The notes beneath the pieces are model-generated. The model saw only the letters and a program-made list of their open reading frames with translations, was not told the origin of the DNA and did no database searches. The translations under genes were made by a program, and so were the position numbers. From Thermodesulfovibrionales bacterium (GTDB lineage Bacteria; Nitrospirota; Thermodesulfovibrionia; Thermodesulfovibrionales; UBA6898), in the NCBI GenBank assembly GCA_044450345.1, contig JBIOIY010000067.1, forward strand, positions 1 to 14,057: 14,057 bases of DNA. Direction: 5' to 3'. Of the stretch, positions 1 to 14,057 are shown piece after piece (the stretch's first letter is position 1; each line of letters begins with the position of its first letter).

Positions 1-437
1 GCAGCTGAAGAGACACTCACAATCGCATTAAACTTTCCAACGGTCTTGCCCCTCTGCTCCTTTATAGTAAGATCACCCAGCAAGGACGTGCTTACCGTCC
101 CTACAATACCGTTTGTGACCCCCAATACGGCCTGCAGAAGGTATAGCTGATATTGTTCCTTGATGACCGTATAGAGGAAAATCACCGTTGCATCTACAAA
201 TGCGGTTGTGATAAGAAAGGGTTTCCTCCCTAAACGATCGGAGTAGCCTCCGACAACGTAGGTAGTGGCCGCCTGGAGTAGCACCATTATACTGAAGGCC
301 AAACCGAGTTTTTCCACCCCGCCGCTGAGCTTCGCGACCTGAAGCACATAAAAGGGGCCGATGAATCCCATGACAACTGCCCAGATGGAGCTCACACTCG
401 TGAATATGCGGAGATTCCTTTCATCCGTCGTGATCAA
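1..437 (-). CDS. MFS transporter, N-terminal part (runs off the left edge of the window)
   Basis: Not in the ORF track; translated by hand from TTG at 437, which overlaps the radical SAM stop (TTGA): MITTDERNLRIFTSVSSIWAVVMGFIGPFYVLQV...VVGGYSDRLGRKPFLI...LLGDLTIKEQRGKTVGKFNAIVSVSSA. Contains MFS motif A (GxxSDRxGRK), the D-x5-RG loop motif and several hydrophobic helices. No stop before the edge. Confidence 0.9.
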   Translation of the reverse strand, partial: MITTDERNLRIFTSVSSIWAVVMGFIGPFYVLQVAKLSGGVEKLGLAFSIMVLLQAATTYVVGGYSDRLGRKPFLITTAFVDATVIFLYTVIKEQYQLYLLQAVLGVTNGIVGTVSTSLLGDLTIKEQRGKTVGKFNAIVSVSSA

Positions 438-1735: not shown

Positions 1736-1741
1736 AGCTTG

Positions 1742-1769
1742 AAAAAAGAGAGGGGGAGTTGGCTCCCCC
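1742..1769 (-). terminator. Intrinsic terminator or attenuator between precursor peptide and maturase
   Basis: Minus strand reads GGGGGAG-CCAA-CTCCCCC then TCTCTTTTTT, about 26 nt after the peptide stop. Confidence 0.8.
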
Positions 1770-1795
1770 GTAAAGTAAGTTTGCAATCGGGCCCA

Positions 1796-1894
1796 TTAAG
1801 ATCTGAACGGCACGAAGGACAGGTAGCAGCAGACACCTGTCGGACCAGCCGACTCGTTCACCCCTTTGCTAAGGACGACTATCGCCTTTTTCAT
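1796..1894 (-). CDS. Putative RiPP precursor peptide (32 aa, Cys-Cys), geopeptide-like
   Basis: AGGAGG-AAGAG-ATG start; MKKAIVVLSKGVNESAGPTGVCCYLSFVPFRS*. Lies directly upstream of the SPASM enzyme and is followed by a terminator. Too short for the ORF track. Confidence 0.85.
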   Translation of the reverse strand: MKKAIVVLSKGVNESAGPTGVCCYLSFVPFRS

Positions 1895-1964
1895 CTCTTC
1901 CTCCTATCAAATGAGTTGGGTATACCTCCAATGGAGGTCCTATCGTTCTATCAAACAAATATTT

Positions 1965-3845
1965 CTATATCTTAAGCCGCAGGCCAGCCTCGACCCATCT
2001 TCTGGGGTTCCTGAAGGCATCAACCAAATATTGAGAGCCGTTAAAGATATTGTGGGCGGTAAAGAAGACCTCCGCGTTTCTTTTACCAAAGGAAAGGACC
2101 TTTTTTGTGAGACTGAAATCCCATATCATGGAGTTATATTCGCCGCTTGTTGACGAGTCCGCGTTCCACCAGATATAATGGCCCTTAAGCAAGGCCCTAA
2201 GAGATTTGTTGTCATTGTAATGAACCCCCACATCAAAGGTATACCGCGGAATATTCTGCACTTCTTCCCCGGTGTCTCTATCAGTGGCATCGGTAAAGGC
2301 AACACCCGCAGAAAGGGAGATGTTATAGACCGGGACGGTTTTCAGCTCGAACTCGAATCCCTGTCTCCTCTGCTTTCCCTGGTTGACAGCCGTAAATGTC
2401 CCGTCACTCAAGGTCTCATTGAAAAGTGCATCAGTAATTTCATGCCTGAACGCTGTAGCCTTCAACCAGAGGTATTTAAGACCAGTTGACTCGATGCCTG
2501 CCTGCACAGACCATACCTTCTCCATCTTTAGATCCGGGTTTGGCACAGAGAAGGTACCCGTGCCGAAGGTCGCTCCAAGCGGGGGGGTACTGAAACCTCT
2601 TGCCCCAATAGCCCTCAGCATGGTCTTTTCACCCAGGTTATAAGTCACTCCCAGGCTTGGGCTCACGAAGCTGCCGTTGGTGCTCGTATGATCATACCTG
2701 ATGCCTGGAGTGAAGGCAAACTTGGCTGCTGTCATCGTGTCATTCACAAATACCGCCCACTTGCCAAGACTCTGTTTTCCGCCGGTGATATTATTTGACA
2801 CTAGCTCCCCGTAGTCATAGTCAAAGCCCGAGACCACATCATGAATGCTGTTTTTCCATGTGAACTTGAGGCTCCCCCCGCTGCTCTTATCGTCAATGTT
2901 GCTGGCCGATAGGATTTCCCCGGTGCTGAAGCTATTATTGATATGTTCCGCACGCTGACGCGAGGTCCTCAAGGACGCATTAAGGTCTGCGGTATCGGTC
3001 AACGAATAATTGAACGATAGTGTAGAGAAAAGATACTCGAAGTCATTGCCGAAGGATATATCAAAGTCGGGAAACTCCCCCTCTCCCCTTGACCCTTTGT
3101 TATAGCCAAAGGTAAACGTGACGTTGGCTTTTGACAAGACATCCCATCTTAATTTCGAATAAAGATTGTTCTCATAAAAAGAGGTGTTGGGTCTTAATCC
3201 GTTTGAAACAAGATTTCCGCCATACAGGTAATAGGAAAGACTCTCCACCTGACCGGAAACCTCAGCCCTGTAATCCCCCGTGTTCCTCTCTCCGTAAGAA
3301 GCGGAGAGCATTCCTCCCGCTTTCCGTGATCCATCGCCACCCTTTGTTATGATGTGAATTATTCCGCCCAGCGACGAACCCCACGTGGAGGAGGCCGGCC
3401 CCTTGATTATCTCAATCCTATCGATAATCTGGGCAGGAACAGCACCAATGTCGGCGAAGCTGTCGGAGAGGTTATTGAGTGTTACGTCATCGATAATCAC
3501 GATTGCGTGCCTGAATTCCGAGCCCTGTATCCGGACGGTATCAGCGCTTCCGGGGCCGCCCCGAGAGTCTACCTGAACCCCGGTTATGGTTAAAAGGACA
3601 TCGGCCAGCGTATGCGCGTTCATCTCCTCTATGTCTGCGGCCGTGATTACGGTCATGTTCTCGGCGACGTGGGAAATTGACTTAGGATGCCTCGTGGGAG
3701 TTACGACGAGGTCTTTGTCTTCGTAGAACATCTGGAGCGTATTGATTTCATCTTCAGGCTGTGCCCAGGCATCAGAGATAAATGAAACAGAAAAGGCGAA
3801 AAGACAGAGGGCCATTATTTTTTTTATTAATTGGTCACTGTTCAT
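1965..3845 (-). CDS. TonB-dependent outer membrane receptor
   Basis: Signal peptide, VVTPTR TonB-box region, plug motifs (TVITAADIE; IDRIEIIKGPASSTWGSSLGGIIHIITK), barrel motifs (NPDLKMEK, HNIFN) and an alternating C-terminal beta strand; 626 aa. Confidence 0.95.
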   Translation of the reverse strand: MNSDQLIKKIMALCLFAFSVSFISDAWAQPEDEINTLQMFYEDKDLVVTPTRHPKSISHVAENMTVITAADIEEMNAHTLADVLLTITGVQVDSRGGPGSADTVRIQGSEFRHAIVIIDDVTLNNLSDSFADIGAVPAQIIDRIEIIKGPASSTWGSSLGGIIHIITKGGDGSRKAGGMLSASYGERNTGDYRAEVSGQVESLSYYLYGGNLVSNGLRPNTSFYENNLYSKLRWDVLSKANVTFTFGYNKGSRGEGEFPDFDISFGNDFEYLFSTLSFNYSLTDTADLNASLRTSRQRAEHINNSFSTGEILSASNIDDKSSGGSLKFTWKNSIHDVVSGFDYDYGELVSNNITGGKQSLGKWAVFVNDTMTAAKFAFTPGIRYDHTSTNGSFVSPSLGVTYNLGEKTMLRAIGARGFSTPPLGATFGTGTFSVPNPDLKMEKVWSVQAGIESTGLKYLWLKATAFRHEITDALFNETLSDGTFTAVNQGKQRRQGFEFELKTVPVYNISLSAGVAFTDATDRDTGEEVQNIPRYTFDVGVHYNDNKSLRALLKGHYIWWNADSSTSGEYNSMIWDFSLTKKVLSFGKRNAEVFFTAHNIFNGSQYLVDAFRNPRRWVEAGLRLKI

Positions 3846-3928
3846 AAAATTTGCTATAGTGTATTCAGTTGCTTATAAGTTTATAGCGTTTAAGCTAACT
3901 ATATAAGAAATAGTACCGCTTGTCTACA

Positions 3929-4840
3929 ATGGGGAAAATTGATTTGCAAAAGTATTTCACACTTATATTGCTTTTCTTCCTTACCTTCGCACACGCCTAT
4001 GCGGGCCAAAAGAGCGTTCTCATCGTCCAAAGCGCAAACCTAGGGCCTTACAACGAGGCGGTAGAAGGCTTCAAGAGCAGCTGTCAGTGCGCTTCAAAGG
4101 AGTTGGTTCTTTCAGATGCCGTAGGACTAAACATATACAGGGAAATCCGTTACATCCAACCCGATGTCATTCTCGCCGTGGGGATCAATGCGCTTCTTAG
4201 GCTTAAAGCAATCAAAGATGTTCCCATCGTTTATGCAATGGTGTTCAACCCGGAGTCTATGCAATTAGCGGGTGCCAACATTACGGGTGTCAGCATGAAT
4301 ATAGCGCCTGAAAAGCAGTTATCTCTGCTCCAGGAGGCCTTCCCCGGCCTCCACAAGGTAGGTCTTCTCTATAACCCCCTCAAATCCGGAGGTTTCGTCA
4401 AAAAAGCACTCGCTTCATCGAGGGACATGTCGATAAAGATCATCGTAAAGGAAATCCATCATCCCAAGGATGTTCCTCTGAAAATTAACAGTCTCAAGGA
4501 CAAAATAGACGTATTCTGGATGATAGCCGACTCAACGGTTTTCTCACCCGAAACCGTAGAATATCTCTTCCTCTTTTCCTTTGAGAACAAGATACCTGTC
4601 TTGACCTTTTCGGAGAAATACCTGCCAATGGGCGCGGTAATGTCTGCAATTATAGATGCAAGGGACATCGGGAGGCAGGCCGGAGAAATGGTAGCGAAGA
4701 TCCTGTCGGGAGCCAATGTTGCGGATATCCCAAGTGTTGATGCGCGGAAAGCCAACGTCACGATAAATCTGATAACGGCAAAAAAAATAGGGAGACCCAT
4801 CAGCAACGAGACCCTTCTCCGGGGGAGGGCAATCAACTGA
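3929..4840 (+). CDS. ABC-type substrate-binding protein (ABC_sub_bind-like)
   Basis: Signal peptide, PDVILAVG, NITGVS, KVGLLYNP, DIGRQAGEMVAKILSG and TINLITAKKIG match this family. Start may be ATG 3929 or TTG 3920. No permease or ATPase in the window. Confidence 0.9.
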   Translation: MGKIDLQKYFTLILLFFLTFAHAYAGQKSVLIVQSANLGPYNEAVEGFKSSCQCASKELVLSDAVGLNIYREIRYIQPDVILAVGINALLRLKAIKDVPIVYAMVFNPESMQLAGANITGVSMNIAPEKQLSLLQEAFPGLHKVGLLYNPLKSGGFVKKALASSRDMSIKIIVKEIHHPKDVPLKINSLKDKIDVFWMIADSTVFSPETVEYLFLFSFENKIPVLTFSEKYLPMGAVMSAIIDARDIGRQAGEMVAKILSGANVADIPSVDARKANVTINLITAKKIGRPISNETLLRGRAIN

Positions 4841-4841
4841 G

Positions 4842-4916
4842 ATGAAAGAGAAATTAATCGGCGCTTTGAGAAAAACAGGCCAGAGCTTCAGTACAAAGGT
4901 GGTTTCACTTTTGTAG
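4842..4916 (+). pseudogene. 5' stub of a truncated gene, possibly a membrane sensor kinase
   Basis: ATG 1 nt after the SBP stop (TGAgATG); MKEKLIGALRKTGQSFSTKVVSLL* stops just as a hydrophobic segment begins. The product identity is inferred from context only. Confidence 0.45.
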
Positions 4917-4925
4917 TACGCGTTG

Positions 4926-4959
4926 ATTTCAGGAGAGGGCTTTCTTCTCCGGATGAAAT
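4926..4959. terminator. Imperfect hairpin between converging transcription units
   Basis: ATTTCA-GGAGAGG-GCTTT-CTTCTCC-GGA-TGAAAT; no clean U-tract on either side. Confidence 0.35.
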
Positions 4960-5170
4960 TGTCGCCTCAATTGACAGCCTTGCGTGTGTGCAGTATAGGA
5001 GAAATAAACGCCCCTTACAAATTCTTGAATGCGTTTGTTAGGAAGAAAGTAACAGTTAGCCAAACACTAAACTCGCGCGGAAGATGCGTTGAGAAAGTTA
5101 GTGATCAAAAAAGATATTTTTTAGTACTGCAGACATCCCCTAAAAACACACTATGTTGGCGTCGTAACAG

Positions 5171-8100
5171 TCATTCGTCTTTAAAAAGTTTTGCGAACTT
5201 TTTCTGTGCCTGCGCCACCCGCCTTGATGGCTGGGGTTGAGGCAATGGCGACGAAGATGGAAGGTAGGTTGCGCTGTAAACCGGGTGGCCAGTTCCAACG
5301 GGGACCATATTCCCTGTAAGAATGTTTTCCTTTGTGCCGGACAGGGGATCGAGCCGCTTTCGCAGGGCCGCTTCGGCAAGAATTAGCGTTGTGTTCTGGA
5401 AAGAAGCAGCCGACAGCCAGCTGTCGGATAAAAGGGCGGCATCAGTAAGGCTAACGATAAGGGGCTTCGCAACGGCACGTTTGCCTTTCGTACGATCGTT
5501 TTCCTCGGCAAACATCCACTTTGACACGATCTCATCGACCACAAAGTCGGTGTCCCCGGGATCTACTATAAGGACCTTCGCAAGCATCTTTCTAAGTATA
5601 ATCTCCAGATGCTTGTCATTAAGCTCAACGCCCTGGCTCCGGTATACCTTCTGTACCTCATCGATGACGTGAAGGGCGACTTTTTTAGCCCCGAGAATCC
5701 TTAAAACGTCCAATATGTCGAGAGGGCCTTCGGCGAGAATATCTCCTTTTCTCACAACATCGCCGCTAAATATGTTGAGCTGTCTATATATGGAGACATC
5801 GCAGCGCCATCGGTCATTGTCGTTGATGATCTCAACGCCGAGCATTTTTCCCCGTGGCGGATAAATGGTTACCTGCCCGTCGATTTCCGCAATGACCGCC
5901 GTGTTCTGCATTTCCCTGATCTCGATCACCTGCAGAACGCGCTTTAGCCCGCCGGTGATGTCGGCGTTCTTTTCCGCCGCCTTTGGAACGTACGCAAGGA
6001 CATCGCCAGGGCTGACGTTCTGTCCTTCTTTGACAAGTACAATGGCCCCAATGGGAAGGTAATATTGTTTTTCCCCTATACTCACTTGCGGTACCGTGTG
6101 TTCAAATATCGCACTGACGATCGTTAGCGTTATGCCCGTTTTTGAGTCCATATTTCGTGTAATGGTTTTCCCGTCGGAGCAGCCGTTAAGTTTGGCAACG
6201 CCGCCGGCTGTCGCCACGAGTGGCAGATTGAATGGGTCCCAGTGGGCAAGCTTCTGACCGGGTTCGATGATATCCCATTCTTCCACAGTAAGGGTTGCAC
6301 CATAAGGTACGGACCCCGCGTCAGTCTCAGAGCCGTGTCTTGAAATAGATATACGCCCGTTTCGCCCAACCACAACAAGCCCCGCGTCTCCTCTGACAGC
6401 CAGGATATCCTTAAAAGTCACTGCCCCCTGCGACTTCGCGAAAAGGTCGGCCTTTGCCCCGGAGCCGGCCGCGCTGCCGCCTTCATGGAAGGTTCTCAGG
6501 GTAAGTTGCGTCCCCGGCTCGCCCACTGATTGTCCTGCTATGATCCCAACCGCATCACCTATTATCGGCAGAGCCCTCGTCGCAAGGTCGTGGCCATAAC
6601 ATAGGGCGCAAATTCCGGGCCTTTGAGCGCACGTAATAGGCGAGCGCACGGCCACCTCGCTGAAACCGGCTTCCTCGATTTTGGCCGCTATCTCCTTAGT
6701 CACTATATCGTTTCTGTGAGCCAGGACCTCGCCTGATACGGACTCACGCATTTCTTCGGCCAGCACTCTTCCTATAATGCGGTCTTTGAGTGGGATAACG
6801 AGATCGTCGCCATCGTAGAGCGCACTCAGGGGAAACCCGTCGGTGCAGCCGCAGTCATAGGCATTTACAATTACGTCATGGGCGCAATCCACAAGCCTGC
6901 GGGTAAAGTGTCCGGCGGTTTTGGTCTTCAGTGCCCCGTCCGCCCGGCCCTTTCGTGCGCCGTGGCACGAAAGCAGATACTCATGATAAGTGAGACCTTC
7001 TTTGAAATTTGACTTAATGGGGATCTCCACAAGCTCGCCATTGGGTTTAGCCATGAGGCCCCTCATGCCGGCCAGCTGGCGTATCTGCTCCCGGGAGCCC
7101 CTGGCACCGGAGTCGGCCATCATGAAGACCGAGTTGAATTCCTTCATATCGGTCCGCTCGGCCTCACTCAGGCCTTCGTGGTCGGCCACGCCGAGGCTTG
7201 CCATCACTTTGTCGGCGATCGCTTCCGATGCTTTCTTCCAAAGGTCAACAATCCTGTTGTGCTTTCCTTCCTCGTTGAGCAGTCCATTTGCAAACTCATC
7301 TAATACATCCTTTACCTGGGCTTCCGTCTCCGCTATGATCGCCTGTTTCTCAATTGGGATAGTGACGTCGCTTATAGAAAGAGAAATACCCGACAATGTG
7401 GCAAACTTAAATCCGATCTCTTTAATCTTGTCGAGGAATATCACGGTTGCCCCTTGGCCAGCCTGCTCATAGCACATCTCTAAGAGCTTGCCCAAATCCT
7501 TTTTCTTTAGCGTCTTGTTGACAGACGAGAAGGGTAGTGCGGGCGGAATAATCTCACTGAATATCACGCGGCCCGGGGTCGTATCAACGAGTTGCCCGTC
7601 GATTCTCACCTTTACCTTGGAATGCAGGTCGAGCAACTTTTGGTCATATGCCATGATCACGTCGTCTTTATCGGCAAATAATTTACCTTCTCCTGGGCAG
7701 CCACCTCGGTCTTTGGTAAGGTAGTAGACCCCGAGCACAATGTCCTGAGTCGGTGCTACACTGATTTTTCCACTGGCGGGCGACAGGATGTTATTGATTG
7801 ACATCATGAGTATGCGTGCCTCCACCTGAGCTTCAACCGTCACCGGCAAATGTACGCCCATCTGGTCGCCGTCGAAGTCCGCGTTGAAGGCCGAACACAC
7901 CAGAGGATGAAGACGTATCGCCCTCTCTTTGTGAAGAACCGGAGTGAATGCCTGTATCGACATACGATGCAGCGAAGGGGCACGGTTTAAAAGCACCGTC
8001 TTTTCACTGAGTACGTCCTCCAGGGCTTCGACCGATGCGGCTGTACGCTTCTCCACCATTATACGGGCATGCGCAAGCGACGAGGCGTAGCCCATCTTCC

Positions 8101-9223
8101 TCAGACGACTATAGACAAAAGGCCTGCAAATATCCATCGCCAGATCGAGCGGCAAGCCGCATTGATGCAACTTCAGCTCGGGCCCGACTGCTATCACGGA
8201 CCTACCGGAGTAGTCGGCGCGCTTTCCGAGCAGGTTGCGCCGCATCGTGCCCTCTTTCTTCTCGATCCTCGAGGAAAGAGACTTCAGCACTTTTTTTCCC
8301 GTGCGATCTTTCGCCATCTGCAGCTTTCCATTTGAAAAAAGCGCGTCCACGGCACCCTGGAGCAGTTTTCGCTCGATGTTAATGAGGGCCTCGGGCATGG
8401 CTCTCTGGTAGAGGCCTTGGAGACGATTGTTCCGGATGATTACGCGTGCATACAGGTCGTTGAGATCGGAACTCGCCACCGTCCCATCATCAAATACAAT
8501 CACGGGCCTTAGATCTGGCGGCATCACCGGAAGATGTGTCAGAAGTATCCACATTGGGTCAACACCGGATTTATATAGATCGCGCACAAGAAGTAACCGA
8601 GCGTTTACCCTTCGTGACGGCTTCTTGCCTCGGAGTTCGTTCATTAGGTGAGGGAGATTCAGCTCCTTCAGTTTTTTTCGGATGAGCTTGCCGCCGCTGA
8701 GCGCCCTAAAACCGCCATCATTTGAGTTCTCTGTCTCGTAGTGCAGGTAGGCGCTCGCTGAAATGATCTGATTCGTCTCGTAGGGACTTTCCCCGGGCTG
8801 CTCCACAACATAAGAATTACATTCGACAATCGCGTCGATTTGTCTAGGGGGAATGGCCAGCAGCAGGGCTAATGTCCGGCGATACCACGGATGCACGATA
8901 GGCACGGCCAGCTTGATATGCCCCATGCGTTTGCGCCGCTCTTTAGGGTCTGCAAGCGTCACGCCGCACCGGCTGCACCGAACGAGCTTTTTTCGGTAAT
9001 CGCGGTGATAGGTGCCGCAGCCACAGACACCGCGCTGGACCGGGCCGAAGATTCGCTGGCAAAGAAGACCGCCTGGAACGGGTACCATTGTTGCCGCATC
9101 AAGCGTCTCATGTCTGGTAACTTCGCCGTAGGACAACTCAAGCACGCGCTCAGGACTCATAAGGGAAATCCTCAATCCCTCAATTAGACCGTCTCTTTTT
9201 GTATCATCTTTTTTTTGTTGCAT
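5171..9223 (-). CDS. rpoC: DNA-directed RNA polymerase beta-prime subunit, divergent orphan paralogue
   Basis: 1350 aa with NADFDGD (7865-7885), N-terminal Zn site (CGC...CSRC), NLLGKRADYSGRSVI, LNRAPSLHR, second Zn site (C...C-x6-C-x2-C), trigger loop GEPGTQLTLRTFH, an SI3-type insertion and a C-terminal SAASFQ...KEN...GTG segment. No rpoB upstream and no rpsL downstream. Confidence 0.97.
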   Translation of the reverse strand: MQQKKDDTKRDGLIEGLRISLMSPERVLELSYGEVTRHETLDAATMVPVPGGLLCQRIFGPVQRGVCGCGTYHRDYRKKLVRCSRCGVTLADPKERRKRMGHIKLAVPIVHPWYRRTLALLLAIPPRQIDAIVECNSYVVEQPGESPYETNQIISASAYLHYETENSNDGGFRALSGGKLIRKKLKELNLPHLMNELRGKKPSRRVNARLLLVRDLYKSGVDPMWILLTHLPVMPPDLRPVIVFDDGTVASSDLNDLYARVIIRNNRLQGLYQRAMPEALINIERKLLQGAVDALFSNGKLQMAKDRTGKKVLKSLSSRIEKKEGTMRRNLLGKRADYSGRSVIAVGPELKLHQCGLPLDLAMDICRPFVYSRLRKMGYASSLAHARIMVEKRTAASVEALEDVLSEKTVLLNRAPSLHRMSIQAFTPVLHKERAIRLHPLVCSAFNADFDGDQMGVHLPVTVEAQVEARILMMSINNILSPASGKISVAPTQDIVLGVYYLTKDRGGCPGEGKLFADKDDVIMAYDQKLLDLHSKVKVRIDGQLVDTTPGRVIFSEIIPPALPFSSVNKTLKKKDLGKLLEMCYEQAGQGATVIFLDKIKEIGFKFATLSGISLSISDVTIPIEKQAIIAETEAQVKDVLDEFANGLLNEEGKHNRIVDLWKKASEAIADKVMASLGVADHEGLSEAERTDMKEFNSVFMMADSGARGSREQIRQLAGMRGLMAKPNGELVEIPIKSNFKEGLTYHEYLLSCHGARKGRADGALKTKTAGHFTRRLVDCAHDVIVNAYDCGCTDGFPLSALYDGDDLVIPLKDRIIGRVLAEEMRESVSGEVLAHRNDIVTKEIAAKIEEAGFSEVAVRSPITCAQRPGICALCYGHDLATRALPIIGDAVGIIAGQSVGEPGTQLTLRTFHEGGSAAGSGAKADLFAKSQGAVTFKDILAVRGDAGLVVVGRNGRISISRHGSETDAGSVPYGATLTVEEWDIIEPGQKLAHWDPFNLPLVATAGGVAKLNGCSDGKTITRNMDSKTGITLTIVSAIFEHTVPQVSIGEKQYYLPIGAIVLVKEGQNVSPGDVLAYVPKAAEKNADITGGLKRVLQVIEIREMQNTAVIAEIDGQVTIYPPRGKMLGVEIINDNDRWRCDVSIYRQLNIFSGDVVRKGDILAEGPLDILDVLRILGAKKVALHVIDEVQKVYRSQGVELNDKHLEIILRKMLAKVLIVDPGDTDFVVDEIVSKWMFAEENDRTKGKRAVAKPLIVSLTDAALLSDSWLSAASFQNTTLILAEAALRKRLDPLSGTKENILTGNMVPVGTGHPVYSATYLPSSSPLPQPQPSRRVAQAQKKFAKLFKDE

Positions 9224-9229
9224 TTGTCG

Positions 9230-9247
9230 TGATGCTTATGATGCTTA
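9230..9247. repeat. 9-bp tandem duplication TGATGCTTA x2
   Basis: Exact copies at 9230-9238 and 9239-9247; the second includes the upstream gene's stop codon. Confidence 0.8.
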
Positions 9248-10099
9248 AAGGAATGGTGCCTCGCCATCTCTAATGGTGATCCACTTCGTCCCGACAAAGC
9301 CGCCGCGTACGAAACTCTCGAACGTGCCGAAATACACGCGTTCGTATAGGTCATCGAGGCTTTTAAATACCTCATTTTTTTTGGCGTGTTTCTTTTCACT
9401 CTCTATATAGCGCGAAAAGTGCTCGCGTAGTATCTCGATTCTGCGTGTGTGAGTGCAGATGATAAAGCTCATCCACCTGTTCTTGACCCACAAGGTATGC
9501 GCCTTCGCTGCCACCAATCGCTCGTCGAGAGTCCCGTTGTCGATTTCGATACCCAGGGATTTTTGCCTGACTTTGTCTTTTTGCTGAAATGTGAAACGAA
9601 TGAACAGATCCGGATAGGGCATCCTTTTTTTTGCCCCCTTGGATGCGCTTTTAAGACTGTTTTCGTCCTCCATGGAAAAATCGTATATGACTTTGGCGCT
9701 TTCGCGCTTTATAGCCTTGACCACAGCTACTACCTGCATCTCGTGGGCGACAGTCCATTTATTTGGGAGGGTATACCGGATACGCCTGGCATCCCAACTT
9801 TCCCGCTCTATGAGGACAGCGGCTGAGTGGGGGGTCAAGGCATAGAGAGCATGAACGCCTTTGCCGTGTCGGTCACAGTAAATCCTGGACGCAATATAGT
9901 CATCCTTCTTTAACGCGAATATTCTTTTTTGAAAGGCGCTATACGACATATCGTGCTTCGTCTTCTTTTTCCCGTCTGTTTCATCCACCGGATTCTTGGC
10001 TATGACCCTCTTTAGTTCACTTATGATCTGCTCGGCTGTCATAGGGCCGCTGGATAGCACCCGGAAAATATCCATATCTCTGGATGTGATGAATGCCAT
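9245..10099 (-). CDS. Replication-relaxation family protein (N-terminal wHTH + PD-(D/E)xK-like domain)
   Basis: ITSRDMDIFRVL...MTAEQI N-terminus, YALT wing, AHEMQV, PYPDLFI and GIEIDNGT match the PF13814-type pattern by eye. Starts 3 nt after the parB stop, with AGGAG upstream. Confidence 0.75.
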   Translation of the reverse strand: MAFITSRDMDIFRVLSSGPMTAEQIISELKRVIAKNPVDETDGKKKTKHDMSYSAFQKRIFALKKDDYIASRIYCDRHGKGVHALYALTPHSAAVLIERESWDARRIRYTLPNKWTVAHEMQVVAVVKAIKRESAKVIYDFSMEDENSLKSASKGAKKRMPYPDLFIRFTFQQKDKVRQKSLGIEIDNGTLDERLVAAKAHTLWVKNRWMSFIICTHTRRIEILREHFSRYIESEKKHAKKNEVFKSLDDLYERVYFGTFESFVRGGFVGTKWITIRDGEAPFL

Positions 10100-10102
10100 T
10101 CC

Positions 10103-10999
10103 TTATTTCTCCTTTGCCCCTATCTCGGCAACTTTTTGCCTGAAGGCAGAAAAGCCCGCATCGATGGCAGTCAATGTGTCCTCAGCTACAGCCTCACCTT
10201 TCTTGATACGGATGCGGAAAATGATATCCTTAGCGGATTCTCTAATCATCCCAGGGTCATCACTATCACCATCCCCTTTTTTATTTAAAAACTTTAACAG
10301 TAGCCCGGGGATGCTTTCCTTGGGTCCTTCCCTCCCGAACCGGCGAATGATGCGGTCATATTCGCGGCGGTTTGCTTTCGATATTTTTTTTAGCTCGCCT
10401 ACAATTTTCGTGTATCCCTCGGCTGTCGCCCTGTCGACCTCTGAAGCCTGATTCAGAAAAAGGGCCGAGACTTCCGGGATACTGGTGATCGCCTCATGCA
10501 ACTTGAAATATTTTGCAACCGTCGACTTATCCTTGCCCACCTGTTTAGCTACCCCCTCCGCGGTTTCGTAGTCCTGCCTCAACTCGACATACCCAAACAC
10601 AGTGTCCACGAAGTTCAGGTCTTCGCGCTGGATATTTTCCAGCAATCCTTCCCGTCTCATTTCTTTGTCATCATAGTCTTTGATGAATGCGGGAATTTCT
10701 GTGAGGCCCGCAAGTCGAGCTGCCCGGACACGCCGTTCGCCTGCGACGATCTCAAACAGATGAGGCGCTTCTGGGTCCTTCGCCTTTCGCACAGTAATCG
10801 GGCTTCTAACTCCGTCGGCTTTGATGGTTTCGGCAAGGCCGTTGAGAGCGGCTTGGTCGAAAGCTTTTCTTGGCTGAAATGGGTTCGGCGCTACCTTATC
10901 CAGCGGGATAAAAACGGCCTCGGCAGCCACCGAGTTTTTGTCCATGCTTGCTGCCGCGTCCCTGAGAATGTCATGTGTCGTTGCTCGTTTTGTGTCCAA
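10103..10999 (-). CDS. parB: ParB/RepB/Spo0J family CTPase DNA-clamp protein
   Basis: PNPFQPRKAF, IVAGERRVRAA (GxxRxxA arginine patch), ENIQREDL and an HTH (AEGVAKQVGKDKSTVAKY); GGAGG 6 nt before the TTG start. No parA in the window. Confidence 0.93.
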   Translation of the reverse strand: MDTKRATTHDILRDAAASMDKNSVAAEAVFIPLDKVAPNPFQPRKAFDQAALNGLAETIKADGVRSPITVRKAKDPEAPHLFEIVAGERRVRAARLAGLTEIPAFIKDYDDKEMRREGLLENIQREDLNFVDTVFGYVELRQDYETAEGVAKQVGKDKSTVAKYFKLHEAITSIPEVSALFLNQASEVDRATAEGYTKIVGELKKISKANRREYDRIIRRFGREGPKESIPGLLLKFLNKKGDGDSDDPGMIRESAKDIIFRIRIKKGEAVAEDTLTAIDAGFSAFRQKVAEIGAKEK

Positions 11000-11040
11000 G
11001 ATAAACCTCCATGAGTTGTTTTTTTAAGGACTGTTAAGTG

Positions 11041-11068
11041 ATATTAAAGAGCACCGAACCAAGTGCAA
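11041..11068 (-). promoter_or_regulatory. Candidate sigma70 promoter for the parB operon
   Basis: Minus strand TTGCAC-16 nt-TAATAT about 40 nt upstream of the parB start. Confidence 0.4.
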
Positions 11069-11106
11069 AAAAAAAGTGGCGCTCCGCCACCCCTTTTCCG
11101 CACTTT
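11061..11106 (-). terminator. Intrinsic terminator upstream of parB
   Basis: Minus strand GTGGCG-GAG-CGCCAC followed by T9, extendable by GGAAAAGGG/U9 and AAGTGC/GCACTT pairing. Confidence 0.7.
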
Positions 11107-11112
11107 CACCCA

Positions 11113-11184
11113 CTGGTAAAAATCCTAGTAAAACAGCTCGAAAAAAACATGGTAAATACCCCCGTAAAAACCCTGGTAAATCTG
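11113..11184. repeat. Six degenerate 12-bp tandem repeats (consensus about CTGGTAAAAAcc)
   Basis: CTGGTAAAAATC CTAGTAAAACAG CTCGAAAAAAAC ATGGTAAATACC CCCGTAAAAACC CTGGTAAATCTG. Confidence 0.75.
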
Positions 11185-11479
11185 CAAACCCTCTTTTCCC
11201 CCTTTGGTTTCCTTAAATATCAGCTACTTACAGACCTATTACTGACCGCCTGCGGCTTTCCATTAACCCCTCCCACTACCACTTTTTTTGACCCTTGTTT
11301 TATTACCCTCTTTTTTGCCCTTTATTCCTAACGCCCCTCAACTCCTCTTTCTGCCCGTAAGCCTACGTATTTTCAGCGTTTTGTAATACTTCTAGCCTCT
11401 CTCGTAAAACTCTTTTTTTAGACCTCTTGTGCATTAACATTTTTTCCCTTTGTTTTCCTTGTGTTAGCTGTCCTCTTCC

Positions 11480-11508
11480 TTGACCGAAGGGTCATTTCCC
11501 GGTATAAT
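11480..11508 (+). promoter_or_regulatory. Near-consensus sigma70 promoter with an inverted repeat over the -35
   Basis: TTGACC-17 nt-TATAAT; TGACC-GAAG-GGTCA at 11481-11494. Confidence 0.7.
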
Positions 11509-11932
11509 TATAGTAATTCGTTGTACCGACATAGGATTTACTCCTCATAAAGCTCTCTGAGCCTGATATAAAGCTGGCAACTCTTTTTGTGCCTTTCGAT
11601 GGCTTAATTACGCCACTACCCCTTAATTTATTTGTACTGCTTACTTATTTACAGTCACTTCCTTATTTATTGATTTCCCTTCCCCTTTTGTAAGCCCCTC
11701 TTTTTGCTGTCGCAATTCGCCGGTATCCTCCCTTGCCTTTATCACGGTCGATTTCACTACTTGGGGTGTCTTATGCCAACTTGCAACTACATATTTCTTA
11801 AAAGCGTTTCTATTCCTGTTGTACTGCTTATCCTGGCAGGAGATTTATGACCCCTGTCACACCTTTTGCAAGTATTGTCATAGCGGCGATTCCCCATGAA
11901 CCGTACCGGGAGGGGGGAGGCTCATCGCTATA

Positions 11933-12082
11933 TCAATCAACCCTTAGCCTTATGTTTCCACCGCGGTAGTAGTCACTCTTACTTGCATCGTCTGCAGCAT
12001 CGTTTAATGGCTTCATGAAGAAGACCATTAAGCCGAACAGCCAGGCAGAAGTTATCTCGATTGCCGATCCCACCAGTTCCAT
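11933..12082 (-). CDS. Possible 49-aa small membrane peptide
   Basis: MELVGSAIEITSAWLFGLMVFFMKPLNDAADDASKSDYYRGGNIRLRVD*: hydrophobic N-half and charged C-half. The GAGG is too close to the ATG for a good RBS. Confidence 0.3.
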   Translation of the reverse strand: MELVGSAIEITSAWLFGLMVFFMKPLNDAADDASKSDYYRGGNIRLRVD

Positions 12083-12377
12083 TTCCTCAGCGCCATTTCC
12101 CTATTGCCTCTCATTTCTTATTCACAAAAAAAATCAGCTTTTCGTCAAGACCCTCCCTCCCCAAATATTTTCTTTTCCCAAAATAAAATCAAAATTCTCG
12201 ACTCCGCAATCCAACAGATTCTTTCCCGGAAGATTACCCCCTTTCTTTTTTCCAACCGCTTCAGACAACTCCTTTCGTTTGTTTTCGACAGCAACAAACC
12301 ATACTGATTCACCCACCATTCCTCTTCACCCACGCATCAAATCTTTAGTCGTTAAGAGGCATTTCTTTGTCTCTCCG

Positions 12378-12460
12378 CAACGGGAAAGGCATGTCAACTT
12401 ACTTTCCCTTTGTTCAGCATCTCCAGTTCTAAACTCTGGCAAAAAGTGACGTAGTTGGAC
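12378..12460 (+). ncRNA. Conserved structured upstream element, copy 1 (RNA or ssDNA)
   Basis: GGGAAAG-[GCATGTCAACTTA]-CTTTCCC; CCAG-[TTCTAAACT]-CTGG; GTGACGTAGTTGG. Confidence 0.65.
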
Positions 12461-12522
12461 CTTCTTCTCGGCTTACCTTTGGTGAGTCGCCAGCTTTAAC
12501 AGTCTTTCTCTAGGAGGATTCC

Positions 12523-12654
12523 ATGAAGACACAGGTATTGGTCCTGGTTCTCGCTTTTTCGATGATCATCAGTCTCGGCTTATATGCCGGCAAAGTTCTC
12601 AAGGATTTTCAGCAGAGGCAGATCGAAAAAGTCGAACACGCCCTTAATCAGTAG
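12523..12654 (+). CDS. 43-aa single-pass membrane or secreted hypothetical protein
   Basis: AGGAGG 5 nt before ATG; MKTQVLVLVLAFSMIISLGLYAGKVLKDFQQRQIEKVEHALNQ*. Not in the ORF track. Confidence 0.75.
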   Translation: MKTQVLVLVLAFSMIISLGLYAGKVLKDFQQRQIEKVEHALNQ

Positions 12655-12710
12655 CCCCCATCTTTACACGAGACATTTCGCAGCATCACAGCAGATTTAC
12701 CCTCATACGA

Positions 12711-12794
12711 TTCCTTTTGAGGCATGCCAACTTACTCGAAGGGAAGTTTTGACACACCAGTCCTAAACCCTGGTCAAAGGTGACGTAGTCGGGC
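12711..12794 (+). ncRNA. Conserved structured upstream element, copy 2
   Basis: TTCCTTTTGAG-[GCATGCCAACTTA]-CTCGAAGGGAA (11 bp, two G-U); ACCAG-[TCCTAAACC]-CTGGT; GTGACGTAGTCGG. Confidence 0.65.
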
Positions 12795-12817
12795 AAAAGA
12801 CAATTCGGAGGTTCCAG

Positions 12818-13048
12818 ATGAGCGGAATGAAAACAGTGTCAAGTCAGCTTTCAAGATGGTTCGGTGGCGTTGATGCCCAGAGACTCTTGAACGGCATTCA
12901 GGCCGAGATATCCCATGACCGTGCCGCAAAGCTATTCGGCGTCAACGAAGACAGACCCTCCGCCTATATCCTGATGGACAACCTTTCTTTCTCTGTAAAA
13001 AGGAACGTCACTGCCGCCACCGTCTTCGTACGTGTTGCGAACTGCTGA
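12818..13048 (+). CDS. Hypothetical protein (76 aa)
   Basis: GGAGG at 12807-12811, 6 nt before ATG, directly after element copy 2. No recognised domain. Confidence 0.65.
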   Translation: MSGMKTVSSQLSRWFGGVDAQRLLNGIQAEISHDRAAKLFGVNEDRPSAYILMDNLSFSVKRNVTAATVFVRVANC

Positions 13049-13059
13049 CCCTGATAAAC

Positions 13060-13305
13060 ATGAGAGGAAAGAAAAAGCCGACTGAAAAGACGGTAGTGGT
13101 AATCAGAAGCATGCCGGAGTTTCATACTTTGTACGGCGGGGATATGCCGATGTTTGGCAAGAACCACGGGAACGAAAAGATCCGGACAGTTGAGGGTCTA
13201 CGCGGGTTCCGTACGAAGAGAGGCCATTTTATAGACCGTGCATGGGTAAAGCAGGCGCAGCTATCTGCGGGGCAACTGTCTTGTTTTCCGAAGATCCGAT
13301 TGTGA
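13060..13305 (+). CDS. Hypothetical basic protein (81 aa)
   Basis: ATG 11 nt after the previous stop on the same strand; no clear RBS; no recognised domain. Confidence 0.5.
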   Translation: MRGKKKPTEKTVVVIRSMPEFHTLYGGDMPMFGKNHGNEKIRTVEGLRGFRTKRGHFIDRAWVKQAQLSAGQLSCFPKIRL

Positions 13306-13455
13306 TGAATGGCAATGAGTCCCTAATGGCCGCCTGCTGCAGAAACCGGCTGCAACGCATACGGAGAAAGCTACGGGCATCCGACAACCCTTAACCGGCC
13401 GGCAAAGCGTTTCAGACAGTTTAAGGCCGGCAAAACAACCAACAAGGAGAAAAAT

Positions 13456-13656
13456 ATGGCAAGCAAGATCGCCAAAGACAATCTGCGCAAGGCTATCGAG
13501 ACCTGCGAGCGCTATCAAAGAGGCATCAATCTTTCCGACGTGAGAGTGACAAATCTCAGAATAGGGAAGGGCACGGTCGCAGCCGACGTCACTGTGGTTA
13601 ACGACGATGGGCATACGAAGAAGCTCCGTAACAGATACGACATCTTCTCACTTTAG
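13456..13656 (+). CDS. Hypothetical protein (66 aa)
   Basis: AAGGAG followed by an A-rich spacer and ATG; plausible alpha+beta pattern; no recognised domain. Confidence 0.7.
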   Translation: MASKIAKDNLRKAIETCERYQRGINLSDVRVTNLRIGKGTVAADVTVVNDDGHTKKLRNRYDIFSL

Positions 13657-13867
13657 CTCCGTCCGCATACAACCTTCCCCTATATGTCTGTCATCCCCCG
13701 TAAGTCAAGACGAGTTCCTTTCCAGAACCTACATCACAGATACGCTGTTATCCCGCAATAAGCTGGAAGGACTTCCAACCAGTATGAAGGACTGAACCAG
13801 GGTAGTACACACTCGAGCAAAGATCACGGACATGTTCGACATGATCGTCTGATCTGCCCACGATGAA

Positions 13868-13896
13868 ACGCAATAGGAAAGTACGCAATAGGAAAG
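13868..13896. repeat. Tandem duplication ACGCAATAGGAAAG x2 (15-nt period)
   Basis: Exact 14-mers at 13868-13881 and 13883-13896; duplicates most of the 5' arm of element copy 3. Confidence 0.85.
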
Positions 13897-13976
13897 GGCA
13901 TGTCGGCTTACCTTCCCTGTTGCTCCGGTGGTTTCTAAACTTCCACCCTGTCAAATAAAGTGACGTATGCCGAGAC
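13885..13976 (+). ncRNA. Conserved structured upstream element, copy 3
   Basis: GCAATAGGAAAGG-[GCATGTCGGCTTA]-CCTTCCCTGTTGC (13 bp, one mismatch, one G-U); GGTGG-[TTTCTAAACTT]-CCACC; GTGACGTATGCCGA. Confidence 0.65.
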
Positions 13977-13998
13977 CAAATCAAAAAAGAGGTGTCCC

Positions 13999-14057
13999 AT
14001 GACAAAAACAACATATCTTGAAAAAGCAGGTCAGCCCACGAAGACTTTCTGGAGCAC
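13999..14057 (+). CDS. Start of a hypothetical protein (runs off the right edge)
   Basis: GAGGT 5 nt before ATG; MTKTTYLEKAGQPTKTFLE..., directly after element copy 3. Confidence 0.55.
   Translation, partial: MTKTTYLEKAGQPTKTFWS

Follow-up and report, generated by a model that had tools for sequence, protein, structure and literature searches.

We found that a genomic island in sulfate-reducing Nitrospirota, as judged from its sequence, carries its own gene for the catalytic beta-prime subunit of RNA polymerase, intact and strongly diverged. The gene (rpoC2) lies in one operon with genes for a ParB protein and a relaxase-like protein (RR), suggesting that a mobile element can re-fit the transcription enzyme of its host. 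In the reading we prefer, with a probability of about 0.5, the island-encoded isoform (beta-prime-2) would replace the host beta-prime in part of the core polymerase. The window analysed was the entire 14,057-bp contig C67, one of the 86 contigs of genome G000, and the following features were assigned to it.

4900-5170, no strand: probable island edge, where homology to other copies of the rSAM-TBDR-ABC cluster stops
5171-9223, minus strand: rpoC2, 1350-aa beta-prime paralogue without internal stop
9245-10099, minus strand: RR, 284-aa ORF, diverged PF13814 (Replic_Relax/MOBC)
10103-10999, minus strand: parB, 298-aa ParB/Spo0J-family protein
11000-12520, no strand: leader/control region upstream of parB, ORF-poor, its minus strand purine-rich
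12523-14057, plus strand: small island genes of 43, 76, 81+50 and 66 aa, and one running off the contig

The ORF coordinates agreed exactly with the order given in the original prediction (parB, a middle gene, rpoC), with gaps of 3 nt between parB and RR and 21 nt between RR and rpoC2. A profile scan of 12 ORFs in the window detected no rpoB, rplL or rpsL family, as had been claimed for the neighbourhood of rpoC2. The separate canonical rpoBC expected elsewhere in the genome was located on contig C6, where the sole rpoB of G000 (C6:85893-89954) lies immediately upstream of the canonical rpoC (C6:81803-85813). The latter shows 46% identity to rpoC2 of the window. Unlike a housekeeping orthologue, rpoC2 is not next to rpoB, falls in a separate clade and shows identities that conflict with host relationships. 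All six genomes found to carry the cassette have one rpoB each (model TIGR02013) and no second copy, which favours use of the host beta by beta-prime-2. The cassette junctions were supported by contigs from other public sequencing runs. In run X3, an 8,602-nt contig spans positions 7862-14057 and a 3,299-nt contig spans 4595-7887, and contigs from run X7 span 8201-13377 and 4998-6505. Parts of the window sequence occur in data of 13 studies, with soil, peat and groundwater among the sites; no RNA run was listed as containing it, which bears on expression in neither direction.

The rpoC2 product scored 1262.6 bits against the NCBIfam rpoC model TIGR02386 (cut-off 963.5) over residues 17-1314, and all five Rpb1 Pfam domains were found. 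Inspection of the translation and alignment showed that NADFDGD, both Zn sites and the trigger-loop His are intact, as originally described. Within the 29 members of the paralogue clade, NADFDGD, K334, R339, K345, R425, the Zn2 Cys residues and trigger-loop R933 and H936 are invariant, and the Zn1 Cys residues are kept in 28. At trigger-loop position 932 all 29 paralogues have Leu, where all 29 canonical sequences have Met. When the paralogue consensus was compared with the canonical consensus, the best-kept regions (active site, bridge helix, trigger loop, switch 2, F-loop and clamp helices) showed identities of 0.67-0.83. The diverged regions were the lid (0.31), jaw (0.34), rudder (0.42), rim helices (0.45) and Zn-binding domain (0.46). 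This distribution, with the active centre best kept, suggests that rpoC2 is specialised rather than decaying. At the clamp-helix position E295, a residue with a key part in sigma-70 binding, only 12 of the 29 paralogues retain the Glu, which counts against the preferred reading. Homologues had been expected to evolve under purifying selection, and rpoC2 dN/dS was indeed 0.09-0.17 (0.117, 0.170 and 0.085-0.086 for pairs free of saturation); RR and ParB gave comparable ratios. The low ratios, together with the invariant catalytic residues, indicate that rpoC2 is a functional gene. A further point against the preferred reading is that no clear Shine-Dalgarno site precedes rpoC2.

In the beta-prime trees, rpoC2 belonged to a separate paralogue clade (29 sequences, 100% SH-aLRT), long-branched as had been predicted and well supported. 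Both trees placed this clade outside the group formed by the Nitrospirota canonical sequences and Proteobacteria, with support of 98 (LG+G4) and 93 (PMSF) and with a risk of long-branch attraction; the trees are compatible with origin by an old duplication or by acquisition. The paralogue was present in 4 of the 41 relatives searched. An rpoC without rpoB, adjoining ParB and PF13814-type genes, was predicted to recur, and this arrangement was found in other loci. The parB-RR-rpoC2 trio was syntenic in every locus inspected, that is in six species genomes (G000, G002, G003, G024, G057 and G363) and four further contigs (L021, L022, L023 and L024). L024 is the one inspected of nine metagenome loci, and of the 27 database paralogues (P0010-P0036) the synteny count takes in P0024, which by its length and its 72,143-bp contig matches G024:C12. 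Where the record names an organism, all hosts of the trio are Nitrospirota (Thermodesulfovibrionia). Plasmid and phage collections yielded only canonical-type rpoC, with identities of 42.6% or less, and no close relative of rpoC2. The rpoC matches in these collections were mostly chromosomal sequence filed as plasmid or phage.

We compared the divergence of rpoC2 with that of the canonical rpoC in pairs of hosts. Between G000 and G003, which are of the same genus, the canonical genes are 95% identical and the rpoC2 genes 52%; the corresponding values for G057 and G024, again of one genus, are 97% and 56%. Between G003 and G057, which are of different genera, canonical rpoC is 90% identical (dS 1.52) and rpoC2 83.5% (dS 1.04). 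The flanks of rpoC2 are mosaic and contain integrases in some loci. Integrase or transposase genes adjoin the cassette in G002 and G024, and in G338 RR is separated from an integrase by a beta-prime remnant of 166 aa. The conflict with host relationships and the mosaic flanks, sometimes with integrases, suggest that the gene rides a mobile island. The mobile-element setting originally proposed is thus indicated by the integrases, the patchy distribution and the disagreement with host phylogeny. Five other Nitrospirota loci have ParB-RR pairs without rpoC but with an excisionase and/or tyrosine integrase, in the module order ParB-RR-(HTH_17)-integrase. Neither the window nor the ~40 kb examined in G003 contains an integrase. 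No oriT was recognised, and the island regions examined showed no coupling protein or type IV secretion gene; we regard the island as a putative integrative element. At the left side of the window, homology to the rSAM-TBDR-ABC cluster ends at ~4900 when compared with C57 and G004 or at ~5001 when compared with C7, and a run X3 contig continues as C57/G004-type sequence from 4900 onward. The 100-bp segment between 4900 and 5001 was considered as an element end or dispersed repeat and rejected; it was found only in C67 and C7 and was attributed to a duplicated host cluster.

The parB gene has a TTG start behind a GGAGG site. Its product matched the Pfam models ParB_N (94.5 bits) and HTH_ParB (19.9 bits) as well as TIGR00180 (126.6, cut-off 58.45), and its translation contains the motif GERRVRAA (GERRxRA type). 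The best sub-threshold NCBIfam score was obtained with the Noc model (133 bits, cut-off 315). No ParA-type ORF was found in the window and none adjoins parB. KorB, VirB and Noc are orphan ParB-family proteins with a regulatory role, and the island protein resembles them in combining ParB_N and HTH domains and a GERRxRA motif with the lack of an adjacent parA. The canonical parS sequence had no match in the window at up to three mismatches, and repeats near parB (~11110-11185) may be element-specific ParB sites.

The label "replication-relaxation" given earlier to the middle gene was upheld through homologues, whereas searches of Pfam, NCBIfam and PHROG with the window protein itself gave no match up to E 10. 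Syntenic homologues scored 37.5, 30.0 and 26.1 bits against PF13814 (gathering score 25.3), further relatives scored 24.8-29.2 bits, and four of six database relatives carry PF13814. In an AF2 model of RR (pLDDT 84.4), residues 1-105 form a winged helix with VIA Z of 10-11 to RosR, TubR, PadR and MarR. The C-terminal domain gave weak Foldseek matches to FokI, MspJI, BsaWI and EcoO109I (E 4e-3 to 2e-2, TM at most 0.27). The acidic motifs H119-E120, D145-E146-N147, P163-D164 and E185-x-D187-N188 are invariant. From its sequence relatives and model, RR appears to be a winged-helix plus nuclease-like protein and a diverged member of PF13814. The cited account of this family treats it as MOBC relaxase / PD-(D/E)XK and describes MOBC relaxases as proteins in which an HTH at the N terminus is joined to a restriction-endonuclease-like domain (PMC3424549). 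Of the two halves of the family name, "relaxation" is thus the better documented. A predicted complex of RR with residues 1-700 of rpoC2 gave scores of 0.00 and 0.00, which is evidence neither way.

Related islands were found to carry further genes connected with transcription. A sigma-70-family gene lies 4-6.5 kb upstream of parB in G002, G003 and G057, with TIGR02937 scores of 75.7 in G003 and 63.0 in G002 (cut-off 42.9). In G024 and G363 the ~7-8 kb examined upstream of parB contained no sigma gene. The window contig stops short of the expected sigma position, so the link to sigma is seen in three of five islands with enough sequence to judge. A second RseP gene directly follows rpoC2 in G003, G057 and G024. 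Paralogues of DnaN, class II ribonucleotide reductase and helicases are also present on related islands, and rpoC2 may therefore be one of several spare informational genes and not the core of a device for transcription. Island length is at least ~30 kb in G003, G057 and G002, where several proteins without a family, of ~360-369, 326, 205 and 127 aa, are encoded.

The original predictions that were open to computation all came out as expected, which supports the original interpretation in part; its central idea, that the protein would assemble with host alpha2-beta-omega into an alternative polymerase, is kept here as a proposal. From the observed paralogy, operon, conservation, selection, mobility and island content, we propose the following mechanism. 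The orphan ParB and the PF13814 protein would be the DNA-handling core of the island, in one operon with rpoC2. With no beta gene on the island, beta-prime-2 would compete with the host beta-prime for host alpha2-beta assembly intermediates. The product would be a second core RNA polymerase whose catalytic chemistry is unchanged but whose surfaces for nucleic-acid handling and factor binding are altered. The altered surfaces would comprise the zipper, Zn-binding domain, lid, rudder, rim helices, jaw and the clade-fixed Met-to-Leu change in the trigger loop. The hybrid enzyme might act together with the island sigma-70-family factor (three related islands) and the RseP paralogue (three islands), and the RseP-type protease could release the island sigma. 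In phases of island activity, such an enzyme would serve to express the genes of the island or to re-programme transcription in the host. That the mobile Nitrospirota island amounts to a transcription-takeover kit, in which subunit swapping by beta-prime-2 is combined with the island's own sigma and, in some versions, with an RseP-type protease, is a tentative proposal with odds somewhat below even.

Alternatively, rpoC2 could provide a spare, inhibitor-insensitive target. Together with host beta it would keep transcribing while the host beta-prime is blocked by an RNAP-targeting natural product, a bacteriocin or a phage protein, and the island would thus confer immunity by target replacement. 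Several RNAP inhibitors and phage proteins bind at the bridge helix, the trigger loop, the lid, the rudder, the rim helices and the jaw, where clade-fixed changes were found (in the trigger loop, M932L in 29/29). The second copies of other essential proteins on the islands (DnaN, class II ribonucleotide reductase and RseP) are consistent with such a role, as is the fast divergence of rpoC2 alleles, with dN of 0.39-0.45 against 0.03-0.07 for canonical rpoC in same-family host pairs. On the other side, rpoC2 is fixed in the ParB-RR operon while the flanks vary, whereas resistance genes carried as cargo tend to differ from one related element to the next. There is no biosynthetic cluster that consistently accompanies rpoC2, and PADLOC detected no known defence family in ParB, RR or rpoC2 (PADLOC-DB 2.0, 2023 library, 0 families at E 1e-5). 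We consider this explanation rather unlikely. The actinomycete rpoB paralogues are a precedent for it (PMC5431353).

The tight coupling of rpoC2 to ParB and RR and the divergence of its sigma and factor surfaces could also point to a role outside the polymerase, for example as a decoy or scaffold that ties up sigma or beta of the host and so shuts down host transcription, or as a DNA- or RNA-binding part of a ParB/relaxase complex. This is quite improbable, as the catalytic residues, Zn sites, trigger loop and bridge helix are constrained in 28-29 of the 29 members and a decoy needs none of them. A polymerase encoded entirely by the island would require a divergent, unrecognised beta-like partner elsewhere on it, as in phage multisubunit polymerases. 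The islands of G003, G057 and G002 do contain family-less proteins, and phage beta-prime-like proteins exist, with 27.6% identity to rpoC2 over residues 17-1078 in the case of Rhizobium phages. However, there is exactly one TIGR02013 rpoB gene in each of the six genomes, no family-less island ORF was seen that is long enough for a beta subunit, and beta-prime-2 is full length and nearer to bacterial beta-prime (~46%) than to the phage versions, making this possibility highly improbable. That the locus is a contaminating contig, a mis-assembly or a decaying duplicate might be suspected from the short 14-kb contig, the draft state of the genome with its estimated contamination of 1.94%, and the low tetranucleotide correlation of C67 to the rest of G000 (0.89, sixth from the bottom among 74 contigs with a length of 10 kb or more). 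Such an artefact is hardly credible and is contradicted by several observations. In related genomes the cassette is embedded in contigs of 294, 438 and 72 kb, with neighbours that include ordinary cellular genes (ResB/CcsA cytochrome c assembly, UvrD). The left 4.9 kb of the window matches a genome of the same genus at 87% identity and two other G000 contigs at 89-90%, the junctions are bridged by contigs from other studies, and dN/dS is ~0.1.

Literature searches returned no published description of an island-borne beta-prime in a parB-RR operon. The rpoB paralogues of actinomycetes are reportedly chromosomal and lineage-specific, and are said to lie neither on a mobile island nor in an operon with ParB or relaxase-family genes; they encode beta, whereas rpoC2 encodes beta-prime. 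In the cited description, for example of Nonomuraea gerenzanensis, they give "two forms of RNA polymerase" (PMC5431353). Like rpoC2, they represent a divergent second large core subunit, present beside the housekeeping gene and away from the usual operon partner, which is proposed to form a second polymerase, and they thus set a precedent for a second polymerase form arising through a paralogous large subunit (PMC5431353). Francisella RNA polymerase is described as containing two non-identical alpha subunits, again a paralogous core subunit and one that is incorporated into the enzyme (PMC3294249). Unlike rpoC2, both alpha genes are a fixed feature of all Francisella and contribute to a single enzyme, with no mobility or alternative enzymes. 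Phage multisubunit RNA polymerases, such as those of jumbo phages, and the beta-prime-like genes of Rhizobium phages resemble the island in that a mobile genetic entity encodes a beta-prime homologue. Phages encode beta-like and beta-prime-like parts, often split, and are independent of host beta, whereas the island has beta-prime alone, full length and 46% identical to the host copy. The RR-type gene close to recombinase genes in Nitrospirota loci is reminiscent of integrative mobilizable elements with a PF13814/MOBC relaxase. In streptococcal elements of this kind a PF13814 protein is found near recombinase genes, the examples given using serine integrases and a VirD4 coupling protein (PMC5357655). 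None of the described elements is known to carry a polymerase subunit, unlike the island.

Bacteria are generally taught to have one core RNA polymerase, which is redirected by sigma factors, by small modifiers or by whole phage polymerases. A selected, intact beta-prime on an island without a beta partner would add catalytic-subunit swapping to these routes. If true, this would be the first bacterial mobile element to change the core enzyme itself; others supply a sigma factor, some modifier or an entire polymerase. A set of ~30 diverged beta-primes with a kept active centre and remodelled lid, rudder, zipper, jaw and rim helices would be useful for assigning functions to these parts. In genome-quality and phylogeny pipelines rpoC is used as a single-copy marker, and such paralogues will be taken for contamination or will distort trees.

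The leader region (11000-12520) contained no credible ORF, Rfam match or tRNA. Four TTTACYAG-type repeats ~24 nt apart (repeat family D1) occupy ~11110-11185, and a terminator-like hairpin with a T9 run was seen on the minus strand at ~11065-11092. A sigma-70-like promoter candidate lies on the plus strand at 11480-11508 (11/12 positions matched), and promoter-like repeats occupy 12387-12458 and 12720-12792 of the window. The pattern TAAAC-N14-16-CGTA, presumably an ECF-type promoter consensus, occurred twice in the window against 0.15 expected; a third repeat copy does not fit it and most related loci have one exact match, and we treat it as a lead only. The whole of 11000-14057 was also considered as a conserved non-coding block or large RNA. 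This was rejected because the alignment revealed plus-strand genes with ribosome-binding sites and third-position variation at 12523-14057. These small genes are transcribed away from parB, and two of them, more loosely a third, come after a ~36-nt repeated element (repeats D2 and D3). The block is 77-86% identical in nucleotide sequence and 83-91% identical in protein sequence to its counterparts in G003 and G057, and it was found in 3 of 54 family genomes, each time beside the cassette.

We used family models to define the gene content of the window, which makes up all 14,057 bp of contig C67; its source genome (G000) is a draft of 86 contigs (3.19 Mb, 91% complete, 1.9% contamination). Three adjacent genes form what we call the cassette:

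10103-10999, minus strand: parB, TTG start with a GGAGG site ahead of it
9245-10099, minus strand: 284-aa ORF (RR), 3-nt gap from parB
5171-9223, minus strand: rpoC of 1350 aa (rpoC2, encoding beta-prime-2), 21-nt gap from RR

The complete set of five Rpb1 domains was detected in the 1350-aa ORF (Pfam), which scored 1262.6 bits with the NCBIfam rpoC model (cut-off 963.5). ParB contained ParB_N and HTH_ParB (Pfam) and scored 126.6 bits with the NCBIfam ParB model (cut-off 58.45). The remaining ORFs with a family match were an MFS transporter fragment, a radical-SAM/SPASM protein (rSAM), a TonB-dependent receptor (TBDR) and an ABC substrate-binding protein. The family scan found no rpoB, rplL or rpsL among the window ORFs, and Rfam and tRNA scans gave 0 matches in the window.

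The sole rpoB of G000 lies on another contig (C6:85893-89954), followed by the canonical rpoC (C6:81803-85813), with which the rpoC2 protein shares 46% identity. Three others among 41 related genomes (G002, G003, G024) carry an rpoC 53-59% identical to the window copy; the canonical copies in the same 41 are all 43-48% identical to it. A protein search with rpoC2 retrieved 27 paralogue clusters (47-98% identity, 1207-1358 aa; P0010-P0036), and canonical Nitrospirota sequences ranked below them (44-46% identity, mostly 1359-1417 aa). The relatives are recorded in the database as Nitrospirota or Thermodesulfovibrionia. In plasmid and phage collections the best match was a canonical rpoC at no more than 42.6% identity, with nothing closer to rpoC2. 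A tree of 63 rows (IQ-TREE quick, LG+G4) united the window protein with 28 paralogues in a single clade with 100% SH-aLRT, a stem of 0.58 and terminal branches mostly of 0.3-0.9, against ~0.05-0.15 for canonical Nitrospirota. A second tree (29 rows, site-heterogeneous model) agreed, with a clade support of 100 and a stem of 0.87. Both placed the clade outside canonical Nitrospirota plus Proteobacteria, a placement that is unsafe given the long branches. rpoC2 represents a recurrent family and is not an accident.

The operon was also found to be conserved. Using tblastn, we found parB and the 284-aa gene immediately ahead of rpoC2, in unchanged order and strand, in G002, G024 and G003. The same arrangement was present at 6/6 loci recovered by searching species genomes with the 284-aa protein (the G002 and G003 loci recur among the six), in genome G363 and in a metagenome contig (L024). 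At locus L022, an apparent three-frame break coincides with N characters in the record. Independent assemblies from other studies bridged the gene junctions of the window, the sole break being at 7862-7887 in the active-site core. Contig depth was 490-1365 in the bin 7505-7973, because contigs of many other organisms match this core; it was 20-35 in 7036-7504 and 2-38 in nearly all other bins.

In unsaturated pairs, dN/dS of rpoC2 was 0.117 (window vs L024), 0.170 (loci L020 vs L023) and 0.085-0.086 (G003 vs genome G057), with 0.05-0.15 for RR and 0.10-0.14 for ParB. All 29 clade members keep NADFDGD, K334, R339, K345 and R425 (E. coli numbering), the trigger-loop residues R933 and H936, and all four cysteines of Zn2; 28 of the 29 also retain the Zn1 cysteines. 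We compared paralogue and canonical consensus sequences by region, with the usual beta-prime region limits (E. coli numbering). Identity was highest (0.67-0.83) in the active site, F-loop, bridge helix, trigger loop, switch 2 and clamp helices, and low in the lid (0.31), jaw (0.34), rudder (0.42), rim helices (0.45) and Zn-binding domain (0.46); the N-terminal zipper region is partly deleted in the paralogues. At trigger-loop position 932 all 29 paralogues have Leu where all 29 canonical sequences have Met, and the two groups also differ consistently at several positions of the bridge helix. This uneven conservation fits a specialised enzyme subunit rather than a decaying duplicate.

The original prediction had labelled the middle gene a replication-relaxation gene. 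No Pfam, NCBIfam or further model scanned matched the 284-aa protein itself. Its syntenic homologues exceed the PF13814 (Replic_Relax) gathering score, and the domain is present in 4/6 database relatives. PMC3424549 assigns Replic_Relax to the PD-(D/E)XK superfamily, usually with a fused HTH, and PMC5357655 equates it with MOBC relaxases of mobilizable elements. The label therefore holds through the homologues, the window protein being a probable diverged member. The AF2 model (pLDDT 84.4, pTM 0.83) has an N-terminal winged helix (residues 1-105; VIA Z 10-11 to RosR, TubR, PadR and MarR) and an alpha/beta C-terminal domain with weak Foldseek matches only, to restriction endonucleases. A nine-member RR profile matched only 174 of 1.84 billion representatives at E<=1e-3, which marks the subfamily as rare. 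G000 itself has another, distant RR-like gene at C19:8392-9162 (E 1.5e-8 to the profile), with no adjacent ParB or rpoC.

As judged from pairwise identities, host and rpoC2 histories are in conflict:

Identity between genomes that carry the cassette
G000 and G003, same genus: canonical rpoC 95%, rpoC2 52%
G057 and G024, same genus: canonical rpoC 97%, rpoC2 56%
G003 and G057, different genera: canonical rpoC 90% (dS 1.52), rpoC2 83.5% (dS 1.04)

The RR profile matched in 15/401 sampled genomes of the phylum. At loci without rpoC2, ParB-RR lies beside an HTH_17 excisionase-type gene and/or a tyrosine integrase (G277, G338:C112, G437:C47, G063, G333), or RR beside a ParM-like actin (G384). Contig G338:C58 has the order ParB-ParB-RR, a 166-aa ORF (8375-8875 of locus L065) whose match is confined to the N-terminal portion of Rpb1 domain 1, then an integrase, and appears to hold a decayed version of the cassette. 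Where rpoC2 is present, it is followed by an IS91 transposase and an integrase in G002, and an integrase lies ~1.5 kb beyond it in G024. ParB-RR thus appears to serve as a core module for integrative elements of Nitrospirota, and one lineage of these elements carries beta-prime.

The left 4.9 kb of the window, with the MFS fragment, rSAM, TBDR and ABC genes, is 87% identical to a same-genus genome. The rSAM-TBDR-ABC cluster occurs in three copies in G000, 89-90% identical (C67, the window contig, 1-5001; C7:1-4779; C57:14707-19384), and because of this repeat the window contig is short. Homology to C57 and to genome G004 ends at 4900, within the first 60 nt of a 665-aa gene intact in both, and homology to C7 ends at ~5001. 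These breaks place the putative island edge between ~4900 and the rpoC2 stop at 5171. In the C67 and C7 copies, the 665-aa gene downstream of the cluster is cut after ~60 nt.

On the other side, a terminator-like hairpin lies just upstream of parB, and 11000-12520 contains no credible ORF and four TTTACYAG-type repeats ~24 nt apart. Beyond it we found:

12523-14057, plus strand: small genes of 43, 76, 81+50 and 66 aa, and a further one truncated where the contig stops

None of these matched a family. Their cluster is present in 3/54 family genomes, and the proteins are 83-91% identical to cassette-adjacent genes in G003 and G057, whereas the adjacent cassette is only 34-53% identical to that of G003, a further sign of mosaic exchange. 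Contigs from three other public sequencing runs (X2, X3, X7) have one extra G at position 13243, which fuses the 81-aa and 50-aa ORFs into a ~111-aa ORF like that of G003; at this point the window carries either a frameshift or an assembly error. The small genes are preceded by copies of a repeated element of ~36-70 nt (12387-12458, 12720-12792, ~13896-13960). Two copies fit TAAAC-N15-CGTA (2 matches vs 0.15 expected), which resembles the ECF-type promoter consensus. The element is a candidate promoter and may be a target of the island sigma factor.

In G003 and G057, the region outward from rpoC2 spans ~30 kb. It begins with small conserved genes and a CsgG-like lipoprotein, followed by a RES-Xre toxin-antitoxin pair (present in G003, but not detected in the corresponding part of G057) and a sigma-70-family factor of two domains (TIGR02937, 75.7 bits, cut-off 42.9). 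Next come a weakly DnaN-like protein, a DEAD-box helicase and a class II ribonucleotide reductase, then a RuvC-like protein and an SMC/SbcC-like ATPase, and after these a full three-domain DnaN, a RecG-like helicase and a host-like UvrD 90% identical to that of G000. The backbone recurs as a mosaic in G002: the reductase, a 326-aa protein of no assigned family and RuvC share 90-93% identity with those of G003, the helicase 51-54%, sigma 27-30% and rpoC2 a value in the mid-50s %. In G003, G057 and G024, rpoC2 is immediately followed, in the same orientation, by a gene for a second RseP (site-2 protease); these genomes have two RseP genes each above the model cut-off, and G000 and G002 one each. 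The G003 island RseP is 38% identical to RseP of G000. DnaN, class II ribonucleotide reductase, the RecG-like and DEAD-box helicases and the RuvC-like and SMC-like proteins are second copies on the related islands; from genome to genome, identity is 90-93% for some modules and 27-54% for others.

Second-copy DNA-metabolism genes and RseP on islands
G003:C34 ~90000-109000 (L091): DNA-metabolism genes
G057:C2 ~190000-206000 (L092): DNA-metabolism genes
G002:C101:1-8000 (L093): DNA-metabolism genes
G003:C34:79554-80615: RseP
G057:C2:218720-219781: RseP
G024:C12:1429-2478: RseP

No sigma gene was found in the 7-8 kb upstream of parB in G024 and G363, and the window contig ends inside a homologue of a 108-aa island gene, short of the expected sigma position. 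The island stretches examined contained no capsid, terminase, coupling-protein or type IV secretion genes, and PADLOC has no model for ParB, RR or rpoC2.

The island carries a beta-prime that is under selection and catalytically complete, and that shares its operon with ParB and a protein of the MOBC family. The rpoB scans found no island beta, and a sigma factor and/or RseP paralogue is present in 4/5 other cassette genomes. We infer, with a probability of about 0.5, that beta-prime-2 enters host alpha2-beta intermediates to give a second core enzyme, which the island sigma would steer to island promoters. The altered lid, rudder, zipper, Zn-binding domain, jaw and rim helices would then change promoter opening, RNA exit, termination or factor binding. 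In a closely related reading, the same hybrid enzyme would serve as an inhibitor-insensitive spare; it suits the company of other duplicated essential genes on the islands, and we consider it possible but rather unlikely. A decoy role for beta-prime-2 is improbable, fitting poorly with the invariant catalytic residues. Very improbable is a hidden beta subunit encoded on the island, to which the rpoB scans give no support, and an artefact is scarcely credible, being contradicted by large-contig synteny and independent assemblies.

The rpoB paralogues of actinomycetes and the two alpha subunits of Francisella are chromosomal. Full-text literature searches that covered rpoC paralogues in Nitrospirae, replication-relaxation genes with RNA polymerase and ParB, and a second or duplicated rpoC gave no description of this arrangement. 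The nearest cases, described in PMC5431353 (actinomycete rpoB) and PMC3294249 (Francisella alpha), involve a paralogous core subunit, proposed in the former to give an alternative polymerase. The enzyme proposed here would be of this known kind; what is new is that the subunit is beta-prime, borne on an apparently mobile island and tied to ParB and a relaxase-family protein.

In G002, rpoB lies at C57:3805-7866 and its contig stops 4 bp beyond, so the canonical rpoC is missing from the assembly. This leaves the paralogue as the sole rpoC detected in the draft, and marker-based pipelines could take it for the housekeeping gene.
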